From NCBI RefSeq assembly GCF_014396165.1, contig NZ_CP060715.1, forward strand, positions 1,380,001-1,412,000: a stretch of DNA of 32,000 nucleotides. Reading direction: 5' to 3'. Shown in pieces: positions 2,005 through 16,097 of the stretch. Each line of letters starts with the position of its first letter. Within the stretch, counting starts at the first letter, position 1. Position numbers and translations under genes: made by a program. The notes under the pieces are model-generated. The model worked only from the letters and a program-made list of their open reading frames with translations. It was not told the DNA's origin and ran no database searches. The stretch is from Erysipelothrix inopinata (lineage in GTDB: Bacteria > Bacillota_I > Bacilli_A > Erysipelotrichales > Erysipelotrichaceae).

Positions 2005-2718
2005 ATGAAAAAAAATATATTAAAGATTGCAGCTTTTAGCCTCATTATTTCCGGCTTTGCTGTTGCGCCAATTATGGCTGGAGAGAAAGAAGATAGTGCA
2101 AACTCAAACGCTACAGTTTCGTTTAAAGCACCTGATGTAACAGATCCGGTGAAACCTGTTGACCCAACAGATCCTACGAAACCGCTAGATCCAGTAGACC
2201 CAGGAGATGGACACGAAACAGGATCAAAAGGACCTATCACTATTGACTACGTACCACATCTAGCATTTGGAGAAGTCGAAATTGATGGTACAACTAAAGT
2301 AGTTGATGCTACTTCAGTAAAACCTTACGTTCAAGTATCTGACCGTAGTGCTACTGGTAAAGGCTGGACATTATCAGCAAAAATGGGAGACTTTGTAACT
2401 GGTAAAGGAACCGCAGACGAACATACATTGAAAGGTACAAAGATTTATCTTGAAAATGGACAAGTTCAATCTTCAGATCCAGAAATTACTGCAGCTCCTA
2501 CAGGTACATCAAAAATCACTTTAGTTGGTGGCGGTACTGATACTGTAACAGTAATGGATGCAGCTAAAAACCAAGGTATGGGAACATGGATCATGAAATG
2601 GTTAAAAGATGATTCAGGTAAAACAAACAGTAAAGTAAAACTAGAAGTAAACACGAAAGACGCTCGTGCTAAAGCTTATCAAGCAGAGATTAATTGGACT
2701 TTAGGTCAACAACCATAA
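2005..2718 (+). CDS. WxL domain-containing cell-surface protein (CscB-like)
   Basis: Signal peptide and a proline-rich DP(V/T)xP stretch. Two WxL motifs are present (GKGWTLSAK and EINWTLGQQP at the C-terminus). Confidence 0.85.
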   Translation: MKKNILKIAAFSLIISGFAVAPIMAGEKEDSANSNATVSFKAPDVTDPVKPVDPTDPTKPLDPVDPGDGHETGSKGPITIDYVPHLAFGEVEIDGTTKVVDATSVKPYVQVSDRSATGKGWTLSAKMGDFVTGKGTADEHTLKGTKIYLENGQVQSSDPEITAAPTGTSKITLVGGGTDTVTVMDAAKNQGMGTWIMKWLKDDSGKTNSKVKLEVNTKDARAKAYQAEINWTLGQQP

Positions 2719-2725
2719 AAAATTA

Positions 2726-3778
2726 ATGAAAGCTTATAAACATAACAGAGTTAAAACAACATTTGCTTTAATGTTTACGCTTGGTGCGATGTTTATAACA
2801 ATGTTTATCGCACCATTGTCGTCTGTGCATGCAGATGCCTATGGTGCGTTTTACATTGAACCACATCTACCAGAAAATCAATATGATCAAAATGTAGGTT
2901 ACTTTGATCTAATGATGACCCCAAATATGGAACAAACATTAACGTTTGATGTTGTGAATCAAGGGGATAAACCGATGCTCGCGTCGCTGGAATTTCAGAA
3001 TGGAACGACATCTCTAAATGCAGAGAAGTCATACCTCAATGTTGAAAAACCAGATGTGTCGATGAAATCGCCGATGACTGAAATGGCTCAAATTTCAGAT
3101 AAAGAACTAACAATTCAACCACATGATAAAAAAACAGTTACCGTCACCGTTAAAGCTCCGCAAGAAACATTTGATGGTGTATCAGTGGGTGGGATTACTG
3201 TTACTGCAGATACGATAGATAACGATACAAAAAAAGATGACAAACAAGAATTTGAAATTGTAAGTAGAACGACATATCTTCTTGCATTACAAGTTCGAAT
3301 GAATGAAAATACTGTAGATAAAAATCTAAATTATATTAAATCTGATACAGAGATGATACAATTGGTACCTAAATTTATTTCAGTAATTCAAAATGATCGA
3401 CCTGTGGTAATGAATGATCTTACAATTGATGGAACTGTAACACACGAAAACAAAAGTGATATAGTTGCGAAAATACATAAGACAACCGGCGGTATACTTC
3501 CGAATACGCAGTTTTCAATTGCATATGATTTAGAAGGAAAAAAACTTGAACCGGGAACATATGATATTAAATTAAAAATCACAAGTGGTGATGATGAATG
3601 GGAATGGCAAGAAAAACATACTGTTGAAGCGCCTCAGGCTAAGACACTTAATGAAAATGCTCAAACACCAACTGAAAACAACACTATGATAATTATTTTA
3701 TTCTCAGTCGTAATATTATTAATACTCATTGTTTTATACTTATATTACAAAATGAAAAAGATGAAAAATCAAAAATAG
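2726..3778 (+). CDS. DUF916/DUF3324 cell-surface protein with C-terminal TM anchor (CscA-like)
   Basis: Signal peptide and the YIEPHLPENQ...GYFDL motif typical of DUF916. C-terminal hydrophobic helix followed by a KMKKMKNQK stop-transfer. Positioned between two WxL genes. The SD is weak, so the start is less certain. Confidence 0.8.
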   Translation: MKAYKHNRVKTTFALMFTLGAMFITMFIAPLSSVHADAYGAFYIEPHLPENQYDQNVGYFDLMMTPNMEQTLTFDVVNQGDKPMLASLEFQNGTTSLNAEKSYLNVEKPDVSMKSPMTEMAQISDKELTIQPHDKKTVTVTVKAPQETFDGVSVGGITVTADTIDNDTKKDDKQEFEIVSRTTYLLALQVRMNENTVDKNLNYIKSDTEMIQLVPKFISVIQNDRPVVMNDLTIDGTVTHENKSDIVAKIHKTTGGILPNTQFSIAYDLEGKKLEPGTYDIKLKITSGDDEWEWQEKHTVEAPQAKTLNENAQTPTENNTMIIILFSVVILLILIVLYLYYKMKKMKNQK

Positions 3779-3785
3779 GGGAATT

Positions 3786-6700
3786 ATGAAGCGTACAATC
3801 AGAAAAACAAGACATATCTTAATTGCATTAACAATCGCATTGGTTGTTAGTGGTTTTTCTGTGTTACGCGAGCATCCTTCTAATGCTATGCCAATCTATG
3901 CTGATACTAAAACTACTGAAATCAAACTTGGAAACGAATCCGAAAGTGGTGCGGCAGAGACTCAGCTCGATATGAATGATAAGGCAACTGACAAAGAATC
4001 GAAAACGGATGAACATGAAAATGTTAATAGCGAGAGTGAAAATCCGGAACCGGTGGATGAAGCAGTAGAAAAAAAACTGGATCCAGAAATCGAGGAAAAA
4101 CTGAAGAGTATTGATGTGAACCAATCAGTACAATCTTTGAGTGATAATAATTCAGAGTTGATAAATAGAACTATGACAGAACAATCACCACAAAGACCGC
4201 AAAATTTTGCGGCGAAAGCTATTTCTTCGAATGCTATGATTGTTACTTCTTTCGCACAATTAAAAAGTGCCATTGAAGCTGGTGGTATGGTTAACGGACA
4301 GAAGAAAACTATTTTTTACTTAGGGTCAGATATTGTTGGTACCAAAGGTGGAATCACGATACCTAACGGCTATTCCTTTTCACTTGATGGAAAAAATCCA
4401 AATACACAAGTCATACATACATTTTACGAATATGGTGGAACTACGGAGTCCGATACAATTCGTTATACAGCTAGTGGCGATCAATCCACAAATTTTATTA
4501 GAAACGTAAATATTGTAGGTCAAAACAAGAGTGGTTTTTTCACTTCCAAATATGCTAATGTGACTTTTGAATTGAGCTTTGTTGATTATACTGGACCAAA
4601 GGTTGCAGCACTTCCTAAAGGTGCTGTGGTTTTCAGAGATTCTAACGTAAATGTTACTACTGCTAGGTTAGTATCCACAGAACAAGTAGCAAGTGCACGA
4701 GAAGTATATTTAACTGAAACAAATACTATTACAACAAGCCCGGATATGAAGGAACCTGTTTTTGCCGCAACTGAACTCTTTATTATTGCTGGCGAGAAGG
4801 AACAAAATATTTATTCTGCCAATCCAATTTTAAGTAGCTCGAAAGCAAACGTTCTTATTACGGATAAAACTGTAGTTAATATAAATGGTATAGCTGTATC
4901 GGGAGAAAAAACTGTAGGCGGAATTGTAACTACTGGTTCTTTTGATAACTATGGGAACATTAACTTCAATGCAGATAAATTAACTGGTAATATCATTAGT
5001 TCAAGTGCCTTTGATAATACTGGAAAACTCAAGATAGATGTAGGAACTATTACCTCAAATGTATTATCTACTACGACCTTTAAAAATTCAGGGACAATTA
5101 CAGTTTTGAGTGAAAAAAGCAGTAGTGTTGTTAACTCATCTCAACGCATGGAAAATAAAGGAATAATAGATGCCAATATTAATGAAATTACTTCAGATAG
5201 TTTCACAACATCAATTTTCGAAAACTCAGGAGATGTAAAACTACTTAGTAACAAGGTGTCGGGAAATGTTCTCTATTCGAAAACATCATTAACGAATACT
5301 GGATTAATTGATATTAAATCAGAGATTACGACTGGACATGTTGTTAATGTTACGGAATTTATAAATGATGGAGTACTTCAGGTTAATGTTCAAGAAGTTA
5401 CTGGATCATCATCAGACGTTATCAATTCAACAAATCTTACCAATTTAAAAGAAATTGATTTGAAGACTACAAAATTGGGTAACTCTTTTATTAACAACAG
5501 TAACACCATAATTAATAAAGGTAGTATTAAAGTTAATGGCGGTGCAGTGGGACGTGATTTAATCTATTCTCGTCATTACTTCTATAACTATGGTAATGTA
5601 GATTTAAGTGCAGATACAGTTGGTTCGTATGGAATTCGAGTTGAAATATCTAATAAGGATTCATTTATCAATGAAGGCGGCAATATTAAAATCCGGGCAA
5701 ATCAAATCTCTAACTATGTTCTATATTCCTTTTATTTTATCAATAGAGATAATGCAAATGTTGATATCAATGTTCTTGAAGGGGGTACAGCAAGTCGAGG
5801 AATTACAATTTATCGTGACAATATCTTTGAAAATAGTACGGCAAAATTTGTAATTGGTAATCCGGAACAAGAAAGCAAGCCACGTACTAATGTGTTTTAT
5901 ACAGATGGATATGGTAAATTTGAATTTATTGATTCTCGTATAACGATTGATACTGCTGATTCGGGATATACAAATGTATTTAATACGCCGAGTGTTAAGT
6001 TTGTAAGTACAGGTTCCGTTCCTGCATATTTGAATATTATCAATTATTCTGGAAGTACTAATTTTGGATCATCTGGAACGAAATTTGATATTGATACCCA
6101 ACAAATTAATACTTGGGATTCCAAACCAACCTTCACAACATATCCTGATGCTACTCTGGGAGGCGCACATCGCTTCGTAATGAATGATTATCGTAATTTT
6201 AATGTAAGTGGTAGTATCAGTGCAAAAGGCGATCCAACATTTGACAAAACATCCACACCGTCTACAGATACAATTAGTATCAATGATAATCTAACATTTA
6301 ATAACCAAGAGGTTATTTCAATGGGAAATATGATGTTGGATGTTCCTAAGAACACAGAAAGTCTCAACAAGTTGAAATTAAAAACTAATCCTGGTTCATG
6401 GGTGCAACTTGCATCAAAACCTACTTTTGATACCTATGCTGATGAAAATGGTAATGTTGATACACAGTTGCCACATGGTGTAAGTAATGACAAATATCGA
6501 GTGGATTCGTTTGGCGATAATTTATATCGTAATTCAGATGTTCAATATCATGTGGATGGTGATCTAAGTATTCTTGAGATTCCAACGCAAATATCATTTC
6601 CAGAAATTGAATTGCATTCGGGACCTAATTATTATGATCGTGATTCACAGATGAAGATTGCGATTGAGGACAACAGATTAAATAAAACAGGTTGGAAATT

Positions 6701-6959
6701 AAGTGTTCGTATCATAAAACCACTGCAAATTAGTGGCCGTCCTGAATCACGTCTTGATAAAGCATTACACGTTAACAAGAATGCTATTGGTGAAGAACTT
6801 GTAACGGTCTATGAAACGACGGGACTTGATTATTCCAGTAATACTGAAGTTATCTGGGAATCGAATGAGGGAATTCAACTATACATTGAGAATTATAATC
6901 GAATTTACGCTAATACTCCGTATGAAGCATCGTTAGAATGGGTATTACAAGCGAAGTAG
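3786..6959 (+). CDS. Large WxL domain surface protein (CscC-like), 1057 aa, with acidic N-terminal linker, beta-helix-like repeat array and C-terminal WxL domain
   Basis: Signal/TM segment at the N-terminus. WxL motifs near the C-terminus (NKTGWKLSVRI and SLEWVLQAK). Internal ~23-aa repeats. SD AGGGGA. Confidence 0.8.
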   Translation: MKRTIRKTRHILIALTIALVVSGFSVLREHPSNAMPIYADTKTTEIKLGNESESGAAETQLDMNDKATDKESKTDEHENVNSESENPEPVDEAVEKKLDPEIEEKLKSIDVNQSVQSLSDNNSELINRTMTEQSPQRPQNFAAKAISSNAMIVTSFAQLKSAIEAGGMVNGQKKTIFYLGSDIVGTKGGITIPNGYSFSLDGKNPNTQVIHTFYEYGGTTESDTIRYTASGDQSTNFIRNVNIVGQNKSGFFTSKYANVTFELSFVDYTGPKVAALPKGAVVFRDSNVNVTTARLVSTEQVASAREVYLTETNTITTSPDMKEPVFAATELFIIAGEKEQNIYSANPILSSSKANVLITDKTVVNINGIAVSGEKTVGGIVTTGSFDNYGNINFNADKLTGNIISSSAFDNTGKLKIDVGTITSNVLSTTTFKNSGTITVLSEKSSSVVNSSQRMENKGIIDANINEITSDSFTTSIFENSGDVKLLSNKVSGNVLYSKTSLTNTGLIDIKSEITTGHVVNVTEFINDGVLQVNVQEVTGSSSDVINSTNLTNLKEIDLKTTKLGNSFINNSNTIINKGSIKVNGGAVGRDLIYSRHYFYNYGNVDLSADTVGSYGIRVEISNKDSFINEGGNIKIRANQISNYVLYSFYFINRDNANVDINVLEGGTASRGITIYRDNIFENSTAKFVIGNPEQESKPRTNVFYTDGYGKFEFIDSRITIDTADSGYTNVFNTPSVKFVSTGSVPAYLNIINYSGSTNFGSSGTKFDIDTQQINTWDSKPTFTTYPDATLGGAHRFVMNDYRNFNVSGSISAKGDPTFDKTSTPSTDTISINDNLTFNNQEVISMGNMMLDVPKNTESLNKLKLKTNPGSWVQLASKPTFDTYADENGNVDTQLPHGVSNDKYRVDSFGDNLYRNSDVQYHVDGDLSILEIPTQISFPEIELHSGPNYYDRDSQMKIAIEDNRLNKTGWKLSVRIIKPLQISGRPESRLDKALHVNKNAIGEELVTVYETTGLDYSSNTEVIWESNEGIQLYIENYNRIYANTPYEASLEWVLQAK
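4941..5855 (+). repeat. About 12-13 degenerate ~23-28-aa coding repeats (F-x-N-x-G-x-[IL]-x-[IV]...[TS]-[GS]-N-[VI]) inside the large WxL gene
   Basis: Read from the translation, aa ~386-690: FDNYGNINFNADKLTGNIISSSA / FDNTGKLKIDVGTITSNVLSTTT / FKNSGTITVLSEK... / FENSGDVKLLSNKVSGNVLYS... and so on. Confidence 0.7.
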
Positions 6960-9163: not shown

Positions 9164-9817
9164 ATGAATTCAAAGCAAAAAAAATATCGATACTTGGTAC
9201 CCATTATTTTATATTATGTTGTAGTAACAATTATCGTAAATCCTTTTGAATATAATATTCACACTGCGATGTTGTGGAATCTTTTTTTGAGTGCAATTCC
9301 ATTGTTATTCGCGAGTCTTGTTGCCAAAGAATCAATCAAGTGGAAACCTATTTGGGTTGTTCTTTGGATAATAATGCTTCCCAACGCCTTTTATATGTTC
9401 ACGGATCTAATTCATGTTAATATGTTTAATTTTTACATTCCAACTGCCAATAATTATCAGCTCCCATATAACTCCAATATCATGGCATGGCTGGGAATTA
9501 TTCAAATTGTATTTTCAGTATTCTTAGGAGTACTGTTTGGCTTAGTTGCAATGCGCCGCGTAATTAGACATTATTTTGAAGTTGGAACACCAAAATATAC
9601 GCTCGCGGTTATTTTAGTTTCGTTCTTGAACGCTCTGGGTATTTATCTTGGACGCTTTTTACGCCTTTACTCTTGGGATATTTTCAAACCCATGACAATA
9701 CTTGCAAAATTATCGGATATGACCGTTCCTTTTGCTGTAGAATTTGTAAGCTCGTATATGATGTTGATTATTGCTTTATATTATGTTTATGAATTTGTTG
9801 TGGCAAATCGAAAATAA
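9164..9817 (+). CDS. DUF1361 domain-containing integral membrane protein
   Basis: The motifs MLWNLFLSAIP, LPNAFYMFTDLIHV and YLGRFLRLYSWD match my recollection of DUF1361. SD AAGGAG lies 8 nt upstream of the ATG at 9164. Confidence 0.75.
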   Translation: MNSKQKKYRYLVPIILYYVVVTIIVNPFEYNIHTAMLWNLFLSAIPLLFASLVAKESIKWKPIWVVLWIIMLPNAFYMFTDLIHVNMFNFYIPTANNYQLPYNSNIMAWLGIIQIVFSVFLGVLFGLVAMRRVIRHYFEVGTPKYTLAVILVSFLNALGIYLGRFLRLYSWDIFKPMTILAKLSDMTVPFAVEFVSSYMMLIIALYYVYEFVVANRK

Positions 9818-9829
9818 TTCCTCAATTCA

Positions 9830-9869
9830 TAGTATACGACGCTAACTGTCCGATATAGATGCTATACTA
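9830..9869 (+). promoter_or_regulatory. Inverted repeat TAGTATA (9830-9836) / TATACTA (9863-9869); the right arm overlaps an extended -10 (TGcTATACT, 9860-9868)
   Basis: Read directly from the sequence. It lies in the 71-nt gap upstream of the unknown/WYL gene pair. Confidence 0.4.
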
Positions 9870-9888
9870 GGTTCAAGAGGTGATCAAG

Positions 9889-10437
9889 ATGAATAAAGGA
9901 TACAGTGTTAAAGATTTCGCAATGAATTTGAAAGGAAATGATGTGACATCATTTATTAATAATCAGTCTCATCGTTTTACAGAACGTTTTGGATTATCGT
10001 TCTCTGATACAGTGCAAGTTACGCTTCGTTTTGAAGATGCACATGATGCTCAAGATTTCTACAATGAACTTCGCTATAATCAAACCTATGCACTTGACTA
10101 TACAGTCACAACATCACGTTTAAATGCATGCGAGCTTATTGTTGATGGAGCTGAAACGCTTTATGACTATTTTGGAAGTCGTGAACCTAACTTGTTAACG
10201 GTGAGTCGTGATTTAAAGCTCAATTTTGAAATTATCTATAATCAAGAATATACAGGAATTGAATTTACGGGAATGGTTCACCGTGGTGAGCTCTTATCAC
10301 GTCAATGTGTGGTAGAAGTTGCATCTGTTATACCAGAATTGTCGCTAGGTGGCTTATCCAAAATTGCTCGAGAGGCTTCAGAATTTGATGATTTATTAAC
10401 ACGTTGCTATATTGTGAAAGGAACACCATTACTATGA
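9889..10437 (+). CDS. Hypothetical soluble protein (~182 aa), no family recognised
   Basis: Long ORF with SD AGAGG 8 nt upstream of the ATG at 9889 (the track starts at a GTG at 9880). No TM or signal peptide. Its stop overlaps the next start (ATGA). Confidence 0.7.
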   Translation: MNKGYSVKDFAMNLKGNDVTSFINNQSHRFTERFGLSFSDTVQVTLRFEDAHDAQDFYNELRYNQTYALDYTVTTSRLNACELIVDGAETLYDYFGSREPNLLTVSRDLKLNFEIIYNQEYTGIEFTGMVHRGELLSRQCVVEVASVIPELSLGGLSKIAREASEFDDLLTRCYIVKGTPLL

Positions 10438-11360
10438 GTCGTTTGACCAATGCTTTACAAATGTTGGACATCTTGTCCGCACGATCGGTAGTCTCCCTAG
10501 ATGAACTTGCGGATACGCTCGAAATATCGACTCGAGCAGTTCAGAGGTTAAAAGATGATTTGGAGTCTGTAGGATATCATATTGATACTAAAATGGGCCC
10601 TAATGGAGGGTATACATTAAAATATCAAACTCAAATTCATCCTATTGAATTTAACATTGAAGAACGTAAAATATTGAAGCAAGCATTGGCACTTGTCATG
10701 CATCAAAACTCGACCCAAAGTCGAGATTTTGTGCGTGCAGTTTCAAAACTTTCACGACAGCTTGATTATCCAGAACTTAGTATGGTTGAATCCTTTCAAT
10801 CCGTTCGCCTAAATATTGATCCCGAGAAATATCAAAACTTCATAACTACACTAACGCAAGCCATTGAATCTTGTCATCGCGTTACTCTTGAATATAATAA
10901 GAATCACCGTGAAACAAAAACATATCGTTTTGAGCCCTATGAACTCGTTTTGGTTAATAAATTATGGTATGTGTTTGGGTATGATGAAAAAGGACGCTAT
11001 CTCAGTTTGAAAATAAACAAAATCAATGATGTTACGATATTAGAAAGTACATTCCTAAAAGATGAAAACACCTCTTCAAGACAAGTTCTTTCTGACTACG
11101 GATACAAAATCCAACCTGTTATGACCGAATTACTCATTACTGATCAGGATTATTTAAGTGAATATATCTGGGGAAAAAACCAAACAATCACCTGGTTAGA
11201 TGATCATCGTTTTAAATTAGAAGTGGAATTTCCAAATGAAATGTCAGTTAAAAATTTCGTGATGAGAAGTGCACGTCATATCACAATAATAGAACCCGTC
11301 TGGTTAAAAGATTGGCTTTATCAAGAAGCTCAAGAAATAATCGAAAGATACAAACAATGA
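10434..11360 (+). CDS. WYL domain-containing transcriptional regulator (N-terminal HTH, central WYL, C-terminal WCX-like; PafBC/BrxR/CapW-type architecture)
   Basis: The N-terminus (RLTNALQMLDILSARSVVSLDELADTLEISTRAVQRLKDDLESVGYHI) is a DeoR/HTH_11-type wHTH. RFEPYELVLVNKLWYVFGYDEKGRYLSLKINKI is a classic WYL core. The start is set at the ATG overlapping the upstream TGA. Confidence 0.85.
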   Translation: MSRLTNALQMLDILSARSVVSLDELADTLEISTRAVQRLKDDLESVGYHIDTKMGPNGGYTLKYQTQIHPIEFNIEERKILKQALALVMHQNSTQSRDFVRAVSKLSRQLDYPELSMVESFQSVRLNIDPEKYQNFITTLTQAIESCHRVTLEYNKNHRETKTYRFEPYELVLVNKLWYVFGYDEKGRYLSLKINKINDVTILESTFLKDENTSSRQVLSDYGYKIQPVMTELLITDQDYLSEYIWGKNQTITWLDDHRFKLEVEFPNEMSVKNFVMRSARHITIIEPVWLKDWLYQEAQEIIERYKQ

Positions 11361-11482
11361 CTTGCTTTTTTAAACGTGCCATACTAAACTTATAGTTGCA
11401 ATCAAACATAGAGGTGTGGTGCCACATGGATTTTAATTATAAAAAAATGCTAGATTATGTGTCTAAGAGAGAGGTTTACGAT

Positions 11483-12085
11483 ATGATAGTTATTGAAGGA
11501 GTCGTGGGTGTCGGAAAGAGTTCACTCATGCGTATTTTAGGTCAACAAGGATATGAAGAATTTGAGGAGCCTGTTGTCGACAATCCAGTATTGGATAAGT
11601 TTTATCACGATCGTAATCGTTATTCATTCCCTTTACAAGTTTTCTTCTTGAATAAACGATTCGAACATATTAAACAAGCGAAAGATGTTTCAAAAGCCGT
11701 TATGGATCGTAGTATTTATGGTGATGCAATTTTTGCCAGAATGCTAAACATCAACGATGAAATGTCGGATGAAGAATTTCAAATTTACTCAGAATTATTA
11801 CAAAACATGTTAGAACATGTTCATACTCCAAAACTTATGATTTACTTAGAAATCAGTGTTGATGAAGCGATGAAACGTATTCAAAAACGTGGTCGTGATT
11901 ATGAACAAATTGTTGAACGTGAGTATTGGGAAAAATTGAATCATGAATATTCAGAATATTTTGATCAATACGAATTGTCTCCAATGTTAAAAATTAATGT
12001 TGATAATCTGGACTTTGAAAACAATGAAGAAGACAGACTCTATGTCTTAAAGTTAATATCAGAAAAATTAAGCACTTTAGAATGA
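11483..12085 (+). CDS. Deoxynucleoside kinase (dAK/dGK/dCK family)
   Basis: P-loop IEGVVGVGKSS, DNPVLDKFY, the RSIYGD motif and the KRGRDYE lid are as in Bacillus/Lactobacillus deoxynucleoside kinases. The preferred start is ATG 11483 (SD GAGAGAGG 8 nt upstream). An alternative ATG at 11426 would add 19 aa. Confidence 0.85.
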   Translation: MIVIEGVVGVGKSSLMRILGQQGYEEFEEPVVDNPVLDKFYHDRNRYSFPLQVFFLNKRFEHIKQAKDVSKAVMDRSIYGDAIFARMLNINDEMSDEEFQIYSELLQNMLEHVHTPKLMIYLEISVDEAMKRIQKRGRDYEQIVEREYWEKLNHEYSEYFDQYELSPMLKINVDNLDFENNEEDRLYVLKLISEKLSTLE

Positions 12086-12095
12086 GGTTATTCCT

Positions 12096-12626
12096 ATGAG
12101 ATGGTTAGAGACCGCAAAAGCTTACAAACAACATGATCCTGCTGTTCGCAGTATATTTGAAGTTATTTTACTGTACCCAGGATATCATGCGATGTTCTAT
12201 TATCGAATAGCACATGCATTGTATCGTTGCCATCTTTATTTTCTTGCGCGTCTTGTTTCTCAGATAGGACGGTTCTTAACGCAAATTGAAATCCATCCAG
12301 GAGCAGAAATTGGAAGATGATTTGTAATCGATCATGGAAATGGTGTCGTAATTGGCGAAACAGCAATCATTGGTGATGATTGCTTGATTCACCATGGCGT
12401 TACCTTGGGAGGAAAATCTCGCGAGGTAGGGAAACGTCATCCGACTTTAGGCAATAAAGTTCATATTGGTGCAGGAGCGCAAGTTATTGGTGCTATCCAT
12501 ATTGGTGATCACGCGGTGATTGGCGCTGGTTCTGTTGTGACAAAAGATGTAGCGGATTGCGATATTGTTGCAGGTGTACCTGCACGAACAATCAGAAATA
12601 AGTGTACTGAAGAAGGCAAAATATAG
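12096..12626 (+). pseudogene. cysE: Serine O-acetyltransferase (cysE) interrupted by a single in-frame TGA at 12318-12320
   Basis: The track ORFs 12096..12320 and 12384..12626 are in the same frame. Read-through gives [40 protein letters not shown]..., the hexapeptide-repeat core of CysE. The stop occupies the position that is Arg in the B. subtilis-type sequence as I recall it (GRRFFIDHG). Confidence 0.8.
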
Positions 12627-12640
12627 CCTTCTTCTTTTTG
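12609..12640 (+). terminator. Rho-independent terminator after cysE
   Basis: Stem GAAGAAGGC / GCCTTCTTC with an 8-nt loop, followed by TTTTT. Confidence 0.75.
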
Positions 12641-13058: not shown

Positions 13059-13088
13059 AAAAGCCGAGATATTCTCGGCTTTTTTTTA
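13059..13088. terminator. Strong hairpin terminator, A-run on the left and T-run on the right (potentially bidirectional)
   Basis: AAAAGCCGAG-atatt-CTCGGCTTTTTTTT. Confidence 0.85.
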
Positions 13089-13780
13089 TTATCGTTTTAG
13101 AAAACCACACGCTATGCGTGTGAGAACATAAACTTATAGAGTTGTAACAGAAAAAAACCTCCATGTTATTATAAATGTGACTGACAATCGCAAATATAAA
13201 CAAGGAGGTAATAACTTGGTACCAAGTGAAAATAGTTTAGCACATACTCGATGGAATTGTAAGTATCACATTGTGTTTATTCCGAAATATAGACGCAAAG
13301 TAATCTATGGGAAACTTAGAATAGACATCGGATCAATTCTAAGAAAGTTATGTGAAATGAAAGATGTAGAAATCATTGAGGCCCATGCATGTGTAGATCA
13401 TATTCATATGTTGGTGAAGATACCACCGAAATTATCGGTATCTGCGTTTGTGGGATACCTTAAGGGTAAAAGTACATTGATGATTTTTGATAGGCATGCA
13501 AATCTCAAATATAAACAAGGAAATAGAAACTTCTGGGCAAAGGGATACTATGTGAGTACAGTAGGACTTAATCAGAAAACAATTGAGAACTACATTAGAA
13601 GCCAAGAGACAGAAGATAAGCTACGAGATGAAATGACAAAGCGAGAATATATTGATCCCTTTAAGGGATAGTAAGCAATGAAATAGCGGTTGTCAGTCTC
13701 AATGAAAAAACCCCTTTAGGGGTCGTGAGCAGGAAGCCCTTCTAGGGCGATACTAAAACTACCCGTTATACGGGTAGATA
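13085..13780 (+). mobile_element. IS200-like insertion sequence (IS200/IS605 family, tnpA only), copy 1
   Basis: 696-bp unit with a left-end hairpin (CACACGC-tat-GCGTGTG, 13106-13122), a single Y1 transposase gene, and right-end hairpins including CTACCCGT-tat-ACGGGTAG (13759-13777). No terminal inverted repeats, as expected for this family. Confidence 0.9.
13216..13671 (+). CDS. tnpA: IS200/IS605 family transposase TnpA (Y1/HUH)
   Basis: SLAHTRWNCKYHIVFIPKYRRK..., the HUH motif (DHIHMLV) and the catalytic-Tyr region (YIRSQE) are all present. The most likely start is TTG 13216, 7 nt after a perfect AAGGAGG; the track ORF begins at an upstream GTG (13177). Confidence 0.9.
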   Translation: MVPSENSLAHTRWNCKYHIVFIPKYRRKVIYGKLRIDIGSILRKLCEMKDVEIIEAHACVDHIHMLVKIPPKLSVSAFVGYLKGKSTLMIFDRHANLKYKQGNRNFWAKGYYVSTVGLNQKTIENYIRSQETEDKLRDEMTKREYIDPFKG

Positions 13781-14476
13781 TTTATTATCGTTTTAGAAAA
13801 CCACACGCTATGCGTGTGAGAACATAAACTTATAGAGTTGTAACAGAAAAAAACCTCCATGTTATTATAAATGTGACTGACAATCGCAAATATAAACAAG
13901 GAGGTAATAACTTGGTACCAAGTGAAAATAGTTTAGCACATACTCGATGGAATTGTAAGTATCACATTGTGTTTATTCCGAAATATAGACGCAAAGTAAT
14001 CTATGGGAAACTTAGAATAGACATCGGATCAATTCTAAGAAAGTTATGTGAAATGAAAGATGTAGAAATCATTGAGGCCCATGCATGTGTAGATCATATT
14101 CATATGTTGGTGAAGATACCACCGAAATTATCGGTATCTGCGTTTGTGGGATACCTTAAGGGTAAAAGTACATTGATGATTTTTGATAGGCATGCAAATC
14201 TCAAATATAAACAAGGAAATAGAAACTTCTGGGCAAAGGGATACTATGTGAGTACAGTAGGACTTAATCAGAAAACAATTGAGAACTACATTAGAAGCCA
14301 AGAGACAGAAGATAAGCTACGAGATGAAATGACAAAGCGAGAATATATTGATCCCTTTAAGGGATAGTAAGCAATGAAATAGCGGTTGTCAGTCTCAATG
14401 AAAAAACCCCTTTAGGGGTCGTGAGCAGGAAGCCCTTCTAGGGCGATACTAAAACTACCCGTTATACGGGTAGATA
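13781..14476 (+). mobile_element. IS200-like insertion sequence, copy 2, head-to-tail with copy 1
   Basis: By eye, the sequence from 13781 repeats 13085-13780 exactly (offset 696), and the encoded proteins are identical. Confidence 0.9.
13912..14367 (+). CDS. tnpA: IS200/IS605 family transposase TnpA (Y1/HUH), second identical copy
   Basis: Identical translation to 13216..13671. Confidence 0.9.
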   Translation: MVPSENSLAHTRWNCKYHIVFIPKYRRKVIYGKLRIDIGSILRKLCEMKDVEIIEAHACVDHIHMLVKIPPKLSVSAFVGYLKGKSTLMIFDRHANLKYKQGNRNFWAKGYYVSTVGLNQKTIENYIRSQETEDKLRDEMTKREYIDPFKG

Positions 14477-15995: not shown

Positions 15996-16097
15996 ATTTA
16001 TCACCTTGTCACATTATATCAAAAAAACGATCATATATTCTCGATAAGCGTTAAACTTTCTAAATATTTAACTTTTGATGGTACAAAAAGGTTCAAT

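Follow-up and report, generated by a model that had tools for sequence, protein, structure and literature searches.

A conserved DriD-type box precedes the genes of a narrow-family protein and its paired WYL regulator in Erysipelothrix inopinata

We analysed a stretch of 32,000 nucleotides from Erysipelothrix inopinata (contig NZ_CP060715.1), hereafter the window, with a focus on two overlapping genes. The first encodes a protein of 182 amino acids that we call X, and the second, immediately 3' of it, a transcriptional regulator made of a winged helix-turn-helix (wHTH), a WYL and a WCX domain (Table 1). The comparisons involve 24 fetched loci, labelled L001–L024, about 17 of which are distinct; coordinates are those of the window unless a locus is named. 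A first-pass annotation, made from the letters alone, had singled out this pair, noting that the stop codon of X overlaps the start codon of a full-length regulator that has only a weak Shine–Dalgarno (SD) sequence of its own. Both features are seen in the sequence: the sole candidate before the regulator is AAAGGAA (10417-10423), about 10 nt from the ATG, which makes a weak-to-moderate SD, and the ATGA overlap is intact. Together, the overlap and the weak SD make a translational coupling of X and the regulator plausible. The strong SD of X belongs to a motif, AGAGGTGA, that is kept 5' of X across loci. A terminator scan found no terminator-like sites between 9817 and 12609-12634, and the region ahead of the deoxynucleoside kinase (dNK) gene is indeed free of them, as had been annotated.

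Table 1. Features of the X–regulator locus and genes found downstream of the regulator in related loci
Feature	Coordinates	Strand	Description
DriD-type box, ATACGAC-GCTAACT-GTCCGAT	9834..9854	.	21-bp palindrome, 12/14 specified positions, at the place of the -35
Extended -10, TG-C-TATACT	9860..9868	+	Proximal GTC of the box (9848-9850) exactly 12 nt upstream
SD of X, AAGAGGTGA	9875..9883	+	6 nt before the ATG; strong; core GAGGTG 9877-9882; read from the sequence
X	9889..10437	+	ATG at 9889, TGA 10435-10437; acidic soluble protein of 182 amino acids
wHTH-WYL-WCX regulator	10434..11360	+	308 amino acids; ATG 10434-10436 overlaps the stop of X (ATGA 10434-10437)
SigmaA-type dNK promoter	11362..11390	+	TTGCTT 11362-67, 17 nt, TAAACT 11385-90; 3' boundary of the module
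dNK	11426..12085	+	PF01712, 1.4e-54; ATG 11426
Downstream of regulator, Erysipelothrix			dNK directly
Downstream of regulator, L008			Mrp/ParA, then dNK
Downstream of regulator, L011			ZIP, Mrp, dNK, hexapeptide transferase
Downstream of regulator, L010			Phosphate ABC transporter
Downstream of regulator, L023, L024			Polysaccharide deacetylase, MurT, GatD

X is a real gene, since its homologues span 98% to 17% identity and since AlphaFold2, run on a 19-sequence alignment, gives a confident two-lobed alpha/beta model (mean predicted local distance difference test, pLDDT, 91; predicted template modelling score, pTM, 0.85). Its family is very narrow: when 1.84 billion representative proteins were searched exhaustively with a profile, 19 X proteins emerged, all of them Erysipelotrichaceae-like and the distant ones 17-29% identical. 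A word-indexed search with X resulted in 18 clusters, of which those few with names are from Erysipelothrix. The first-pass annotation could place the protein in no family, and neither could we: X matches no model of Pfam, NCBIfam or PADLOC, and no homology to a housekeeping family was found by Pfam, profile or AlphaFold2/Foldseek searches. There is one weak PHROG match, to phrog_3723 (E 2e-4, residues 25-60, corresponding to the N-terminal helices), a phage family of 83 positions and of unknown function. Homologues of X were not found by tblastn in 50,697 phage records, and X is absent from IMG/VR.

The X model has no Foldseek match in the PDB at E<=0.001, the best being 2ijr (Api92, DUF1281) with an E-value of 0.015. 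Against BFVD it has three matches at E<=1e-3 and several to proteins described as "YubB ferredoxin-like domain" (E 1e-4 to 4e-3, probability 0.99-1.0), with TM-scores of 0.34-0.38. The likeness of fold to YubB/Api92 is weak throughout (TM-scores 0.22-0.38), and the function of YubB/Api92 is itself unknown. None of 21 X-family members matches the DUF1281 or YubB models of Pfam at E<5, a threshold at which the search returns scattered noise only, including weak RRM-like matches. Sequence and profile searches of X against the PDB gave UMP1 matches at chance level only, and we found nothing informative in the literature on DUF1281, Api92 and YubB. X may be described as weakly Api92/YubB-like, and no more. 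The proteins of the family are mildly acidic (isoelectric point mostly 4.5-5.9), and the polar motifs kept within Erysipelothrix differ in the distant homologues. Because, apart from the initiator Met, Q119 and G133 are the sole residues that never vary in the family, X is probably non-enzymatic and would act through partner binding rather than catalysis.

The two genes are strictly paired. In 24 out of 24 fetched loci, the gene directly 3' of X encodes a WYL regulator, always from one subfamily; the loci come from Erysipelothrix sp. HDW6C, E. rhusiopathiae, E. tonsillarum, E. anatis, E. aquatica, E. urinaevulpis, several metagenome-assembled genomes (MAGs) and metagenomic Erysipelotrichaceae-like contigs. 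The proposal of a two-gene module, made on a single sequence, is borne out in the relatives. The reading frames overlap by 1-44 nt in all loci except L003 and L004, with a stop/start overlap in about 16 of the 17 distinct loci. The regulator subfamily is as narrow as that of X, with 31 clusters, none of them below 42% identity. A genome scan with a narrower regulator alignment returned seven loci, all in Erysipelothrix. The regulator is a core gene in E. rhusiopathiae, since index entries for it occur in 539 collection blocks of that species.

We then consider the region upstream of X. When the upstream regions are aligned on the -10 element, a palindrome, ATAYGAC-N7-GTCRTAT, stands at a fixed position 5' of X. 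This motif equals the consensus box of Caulobacter DriD, ATACGAC(N7)GTCGTAT (PMC10853764). The agreement is 14/14 in L001, L005, L014 (E. tonsillarum), L015 (E. anatis) and L020 (E. rhusiopathiae; ATACGAC CATTAAT GTCGTAT). The most distant loci (L011, L023, L024) carry perfect palindromes of a variant, ATGGAC-N7-GTCCAT. It reads ATATGGAC-N7-GTCCATAT in L023 and L024, whose X proteins have no more than 17-25% identity. The promoter of X has no -35 consensus, and a consensus promoter scan gives no -35/-10 pair; its -10 (TATACT) is often preceded by TGn. The arrangement GTC-N12-TAnnnT occurs in 12 of 15 loci, compared with a chance expectation of 1.4% per region. The box is the only site with at least 12/14 positions in the window, yet 0.57 such sites are expected per 32 kb. 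Its weight therefore comes from the conservation of its position across loci with diverged flanks, and not from the match in the window alone. Neither the window nor 217 kb of related loci yielded a second box, e.g., before the kinase. A weak box-like site, ATATCAAAAAAACGATCATAT (11/14; 16016-16036, also L013 9190), lies in the intergenic region between the divergent 5'-nucleotidase and NusG_II-domain genes; its score is no better than chance would give (6.7 such sites per window).

The placement of the box has precedents among WYL activators. The PafBC motif, tGTCgg(N10)tA(N3)T, includes a "-26 element" in place of the -35 (PMC8635444), and SiwR uses a 19-bp palindrome between the -35 and -10 of which the -26 region is essential (PMC10693628). 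As read from the sequence, the geometry of the X promoter is that of the activator promoters of PafBC, SiwR and DriD. A conserved DriD-type operator 5' of X, overlooked by the first-pass annotation, would provide the module with a concrete mechanism.

One locus separates the two genes. In L003, the most divergent Erysipelothrix MAG, a strong terminator hairpin with a U-run lies between X and the regulator (6558-6607, -24.1 kcal/mol, z -5.9), and the regulator has a separate promoter (TTGATA-17-TAATAT), while the box stays before X. This natural experiment supports X as the regulated gene, because the box remains with X when the genes are split. It also shows that the production of X and the regulator in fixed stoichiometry, as proposed initially, is not obligatory. 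The simple terminator scan did not see the hairpin of L003, probably because of an internal loop and a bulge in its stem.

The regulator has the same sequence as WP_187533209.1 of E. inopinata (100% identity), and each of its three domains scores above the Pfam cut-off: the N-terminal wHTH (PF08279 HTH_11, 2.1e-8, residues 8-60), the WYL domain (PF13280, 7.8e-12, residues 137-201, with W178 and Y179 invariant) and the WCX domain (PF25583, 4.5e-6, residues 243-302, 27.3 bits for a cut-off of 23.9 bits). Its annotation as kin of ligand-sensing WYL switches is upheld. The AlphaFold2 model shows three helices and a beta-wing at residues 3-64; the domains are good (pLDDT 77) and their packing against each other is uncertain (pTM 0.36). 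The best Foldseek matches of this model are PafBC (9fnd, 2e-11) and DriD (8tp8, 5e-11). Matches to activators range from 2e-11 to 1e-9, and those to the repressors CapW and BrxR are weaker (4e-7 to 3e-5). Judged by sequence (~15% identity), the regulator is the orthologue of none of PafBC, DriD, CapW and BrxR. The palindromic operator argues indirectly for a dimer. A literature search on Erysipelothrix and WYL returned nothing relevant.

Two pairs of residues link the regulator to the characterised activators. R34 and R38 are invariant in 24 regulator homologues and align, in a profile alignment, with R46/R50 of PafB, which read both guanines of GTC (PMC8635444). The same i/i+4 Arg pair is found in DriD (R37/R41; PMC10853764) and SiwR (R38/R42; PMC10693628). 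K193 and R196 are nearly invariant and align with the FRLSRI motif of PafB. Their spacing of three residues equals that of R204/R207 in SiwR, which are required for activation dependent on single-stranded DNA (ssDNA) (PMC10693628).

Among the known WYL systems, DriD, an activator of the SOS-independent response to DNA damage in Caulobacter crescentus, shares with the locus described here the domain order of the regulator, the sequence of the box upstream of X, the overlap of this box with a missing -35 at a set distance from the -10 and the Arg pair in the recognition helix, and is among the best structural matches of the regulator. One of the genes that DriD activates, CCNA_03891, is likewise a neighbour of unknown function. 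However, the two proteins are not orthologues, given their low identity and a marginal E-value, and they come from Alphaproteobacteria and Bacillota, respectively. Moreover, driD is transcribed divergently from its neighbour and does not regulate itself, whereas here the target is upstream of the regulator and co-transcribed with it. SiwR, a homodimeric activator of the adjacent dinS operon in Mycobacterium smegmatis, resembles the regulator in being a single WYL gene for an adjacent small operon, in having a palindrome of ~19-21 bp between the -35 and -10 positions, and in combining an Arg pair in the HTH with a basic pair in the WYL domain. It differs in its targets, which are DinB/YfiT-like (DUF664) whereas X has an unrelated fold, and which are transcribed from a promoter region between siwR and the operon. 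SiwR promoters also keep a GGA triplet at -26, and the sequence of the box is different.

PafBC, the actinobacterial activator of the DNA damage response that works by sigma adaptation, is similar in that the promoter-proximal half-site of the box obeys its motif, tGTCgg(N10)tAnnnT, with no -35. It also shares the aligned Arg pair and gives the best Foldseek and hidden Markov model matches (9fnd, 6sj9). In contrast, PafBC is a heterodimer or a fusion of two WYL proteins, its site is not palindromic, and it is tied to the Pup-proteasome locus and controls ~150 genes. Neither pafA nor proteasome genes were found in the window or the loci, which have one WYL gene only. Finally, CapW and BrxR are wHTH-WYL-WCX homodimers whose palindromic sites lie in the promoter of an operon next to them, and CapW senses ssDNA. 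Yet both act as repressors and are encoded at the edge of CBASS, BREX or other defence islands, of which there are none here, and their structural similarity to the regulator is lower.

We favour, with moderate confidence, a scenario in which a WYL activator of the DriD/SiwR/PafBC type binds the box and drives the expression of X and of itself when it binds its ligand. A homodimeric wHTH-WYL-WCX factor would occupy the 21-bp palindrome in place of the -35 of the X–regulator promoter. Upon binding of the ligand to the WYL domain, it would recruit or adapt the RNA polymerase at this -35-less promoter. The likeliest ligand would be ssDNA resulting from DNA damage or from the replication of phages or plasmids. 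As a result, X would be induced, and in most lineages so would the regulator, through translational coupling, which would amount to positive feedback. X would then be the locally controlled output, a soluble protein that likely binds a partner. By analogy with the characterised systems, the regulator is probably a DriD/SiwR-like sensor of ssDNA and X its stress-induced product.

Several observations weigh against this activator scenario. The spacing is N11 in L008, with a gap of 9 nt within the palindrome; the half-sites of L010 are TAC/GTA; the distal half-site is degenerate in L006, L018 and L019, where the proximal one is well kept; and L022 is without a clear box. The sequence likeness to DriD is marginal (profile E-values of 0.02-0.14 with the DriD chains of the PDB, 14-16% identity in the Foldseek alignments). 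MbpR, a WYL factor of the Bacillota (L. plantarum), senses c-di-GMP and not ssDNA (PMC11880434), so the ligand of the regulator could also be something other than ssDNA. Finally, the box extends from about -41 to -21, and in most loci the promoter has an extended -10 (TGn), which can be workable without a -35. Transcription could then be independent of a factor, and a repressor would fit equally well.

The main rival thus uses the same parts and differs in sign alone: a CapW/BrxR-like repressor would block the RNA polymerase at the box, and the ligand would de-repress X and the regulator itself. We regard it as unlikely, if worth keeping in mind. Negative autoregulation is common among co-transcribed regulators, which counts in its favour. 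WYL repressors of the CapW type are reported to sense ssDNA too (PMC11662680). The box, however, is placed as in the known promoters of the activators PafBC, SiwR and DriD, the structural matches are four to five orders of magnitude better to activators than to CapW/BrxR, and no defence system is adjacent.

In another alternative, X would bind the regulator physically, as its co-sensor, anti-activator or feedback inhibitor, in a set ratio, like the small co-regulators found beside other stress regulators. The strict co-occurrence of the two families and their matching narrow distributions fit this idea, as do the frequent stop/start overlaps and the lack of conserved catalytic-type residues in X. 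The change of its genus-level polar motifs in distant homologues is also what one would expect of a co-evolving interface. Yet the genes of L003 are transcribed apart, with a terminator between them, and DriD, SiwR, CapW and BrxR function without such a partner. We hold this doubtful. It is compatible with the activator scenario, and the two are not exclusive.

The first-pass annotation had tentatively linked the pair to the salvage of deoxynucleoside triphosphates (dNTPs), with X, the regulator and dNK forming one operon that ties a nucleic-acid or nucleotide signal to this pathway. The absence of terminators from 9817 to 12609 would allow it, and dNK is directly 3' of the regulator in all Erysipelothrix loci and within one or two genes of it in L008 and L011. 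The link is nevertheless not supported. The gap between the regulator and dNK contains a -35/-10 pair common to L001, L005, L020 and L022, i.e., a conserved promoter of the type TTGCWW-17/18-TAAACT, and no DriD-type box. In L008 and L011, Mrp/ParA or ZIP genes intervene between the regulator and dNK. In L010, L023 and L024, the regulator is followed by genes of phosphate ABC transport or of the cell wall, and the retrieved sequences have no kinase. We rejected the dNTP-salvage operon, which is improbable, on account of this promoter and of the intervening or absent kinase in distant loci. By its sequence context, dNK is a separately promoted syntenic neighbour outside the module, into which read-through is possible. 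The dNK promoter of L020 (E. rhusiopathiae) has a perfect palindrome between its -35 and -10, TTTGTCATGACAAA (6940-6953), and that of L005 an imperfect one, TTTGTCAGTACAAA. The dNK promoter of the window has no such palindrome, which may be the operator of another regulator.

The surroundings of the pair are those of an ordinary chromosome. Throughout the family, the locus belongs to the core and keeps its synteny, and the rest of the window is housekeeping. Adenylosuccinate synthase, NusG_II and ABC exporters recur in the neighbourhood of different loci, which looks like inherited synteny. The window contains no defence genes, PADLOC places none next to the pair, with only generic kinase matches for dNK, and there are no Rfam elements in the window. 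Neither the plastic region suggested at first nor a defence context is supported: the pair sits in a syntenic housekeeping locus that is core in E. rhusiopathiae, has no PADLOC neighbour and is not in the phage collections. We rejected a defence island for these reasons, and a toxin–antitoxin module because X matches no toxin family and the distribution is core. A mobile anti-phage or toxin–antitoxin-like module, with X as a toxic effector restrained by the WYL protein, is very improbable, even if the regulator matches PADLOC WYL models of CRISPR-associated signalling sets, many WYL factors flank defence systems (PMC9122601) and two overlapping, seemingly autoregulated genes resemble a type II toxin–antitoxin layout, because X has no PADLOC match, no recognised toxin family and no conserved catalytic residues, because the locus is syntenic rather than patchy and absent from IMG/VR and the phage records, and because the window is devoid of defence genes.

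The WYL activators PafBC, DriD, SiwR and DdaA are emerging as SOS-independent switches of the response to DNA damage and have been described in Actinobacteria and Proteobacteria. What is new here is the host lineage (Erysipelotrichia), the co-transcribed layout with the target first, and the cargo family, X. The same cis-logic, i.e., a DriD box, a GTC predicted to be read by an Arg pair, and a -35 replaced at a PafBC-like spacing, is found in Erysipelotrichia, which suggests an ancient and portable promoter grammar for this regulator family. The identity of the box across phyla and the PafBC-like spacing should interest specialists. The pair also offers a minimal test system, with one promoter, one regulator and one cargo of unknown role, in a cultivable veterinary and zoonotic pathogen, E. 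rhusiopathiae. In this way, a function induced by damage or phages can be proposed specifically for an unannotated "hypothetical protein" of 182 amino acids. More tentatively, and with the odds against it in this full form, X could represent a new class of stress-induced effector or co-regulator restricted to Erysipelotrichaceae. It would be cytosolic, non-enzymatic and induced by an ssDNA-sensing WYL activator, and would bind a core machine (e.g., the divisome, RecA or the replisome) or feed back on the regulator. The two genes would in that case be at the heart of an SOS-independent circuit for DNA damage or phage alarm, as yet uncharacterised, in a lineage of Bacillota that includes the pathogen E. 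rhusiopathiae.

Other features of the window deserve a brief mention. A cluster of WxL surface-protein genes (2005-6959) encodes a WxL-domain protein, followed by a WxL-interacting protein in which PGBD and HBD domains are present, and ends with an ORF of 1057 amino acids (3786-6959) that has no Pfam match at E<=1e-5. The first-pass annotation had counted two broken genes and an insertion sequence (IS) in the neighbourhood; IS200-like copies are present, and only one broken gene was confirmed. The latter is a hexapeptide gene resembling serine acetyltransferase (12096-12626), which reads as two ORFs because of one in-frame TGA (12318-12320). It is collinear with the intact orthologue of 176 amino acids in L001, to which it is 81% identical (…IGR*FVIDHG… versus …IGERFIIDHG…). 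The in-frame TGA would reflect a nonsense pseudogene, a sequencing error or read-through, and not a frameshift. On the 3' side of this gene, an IS200-like unit (Y1 transposase, PF01797) is repeated in tandem (13085-14476, with a period of 696 bp), and its two tnpA copies (13177-13671 and 13873-14367) are identical. No remnant of the adenylosuccinate synthase gene (purA) was found in the window by tblastn. The IS200-like pair occupies the place that purA has in E. rhusiopathiae, E. tonsillarum and HDW6C.

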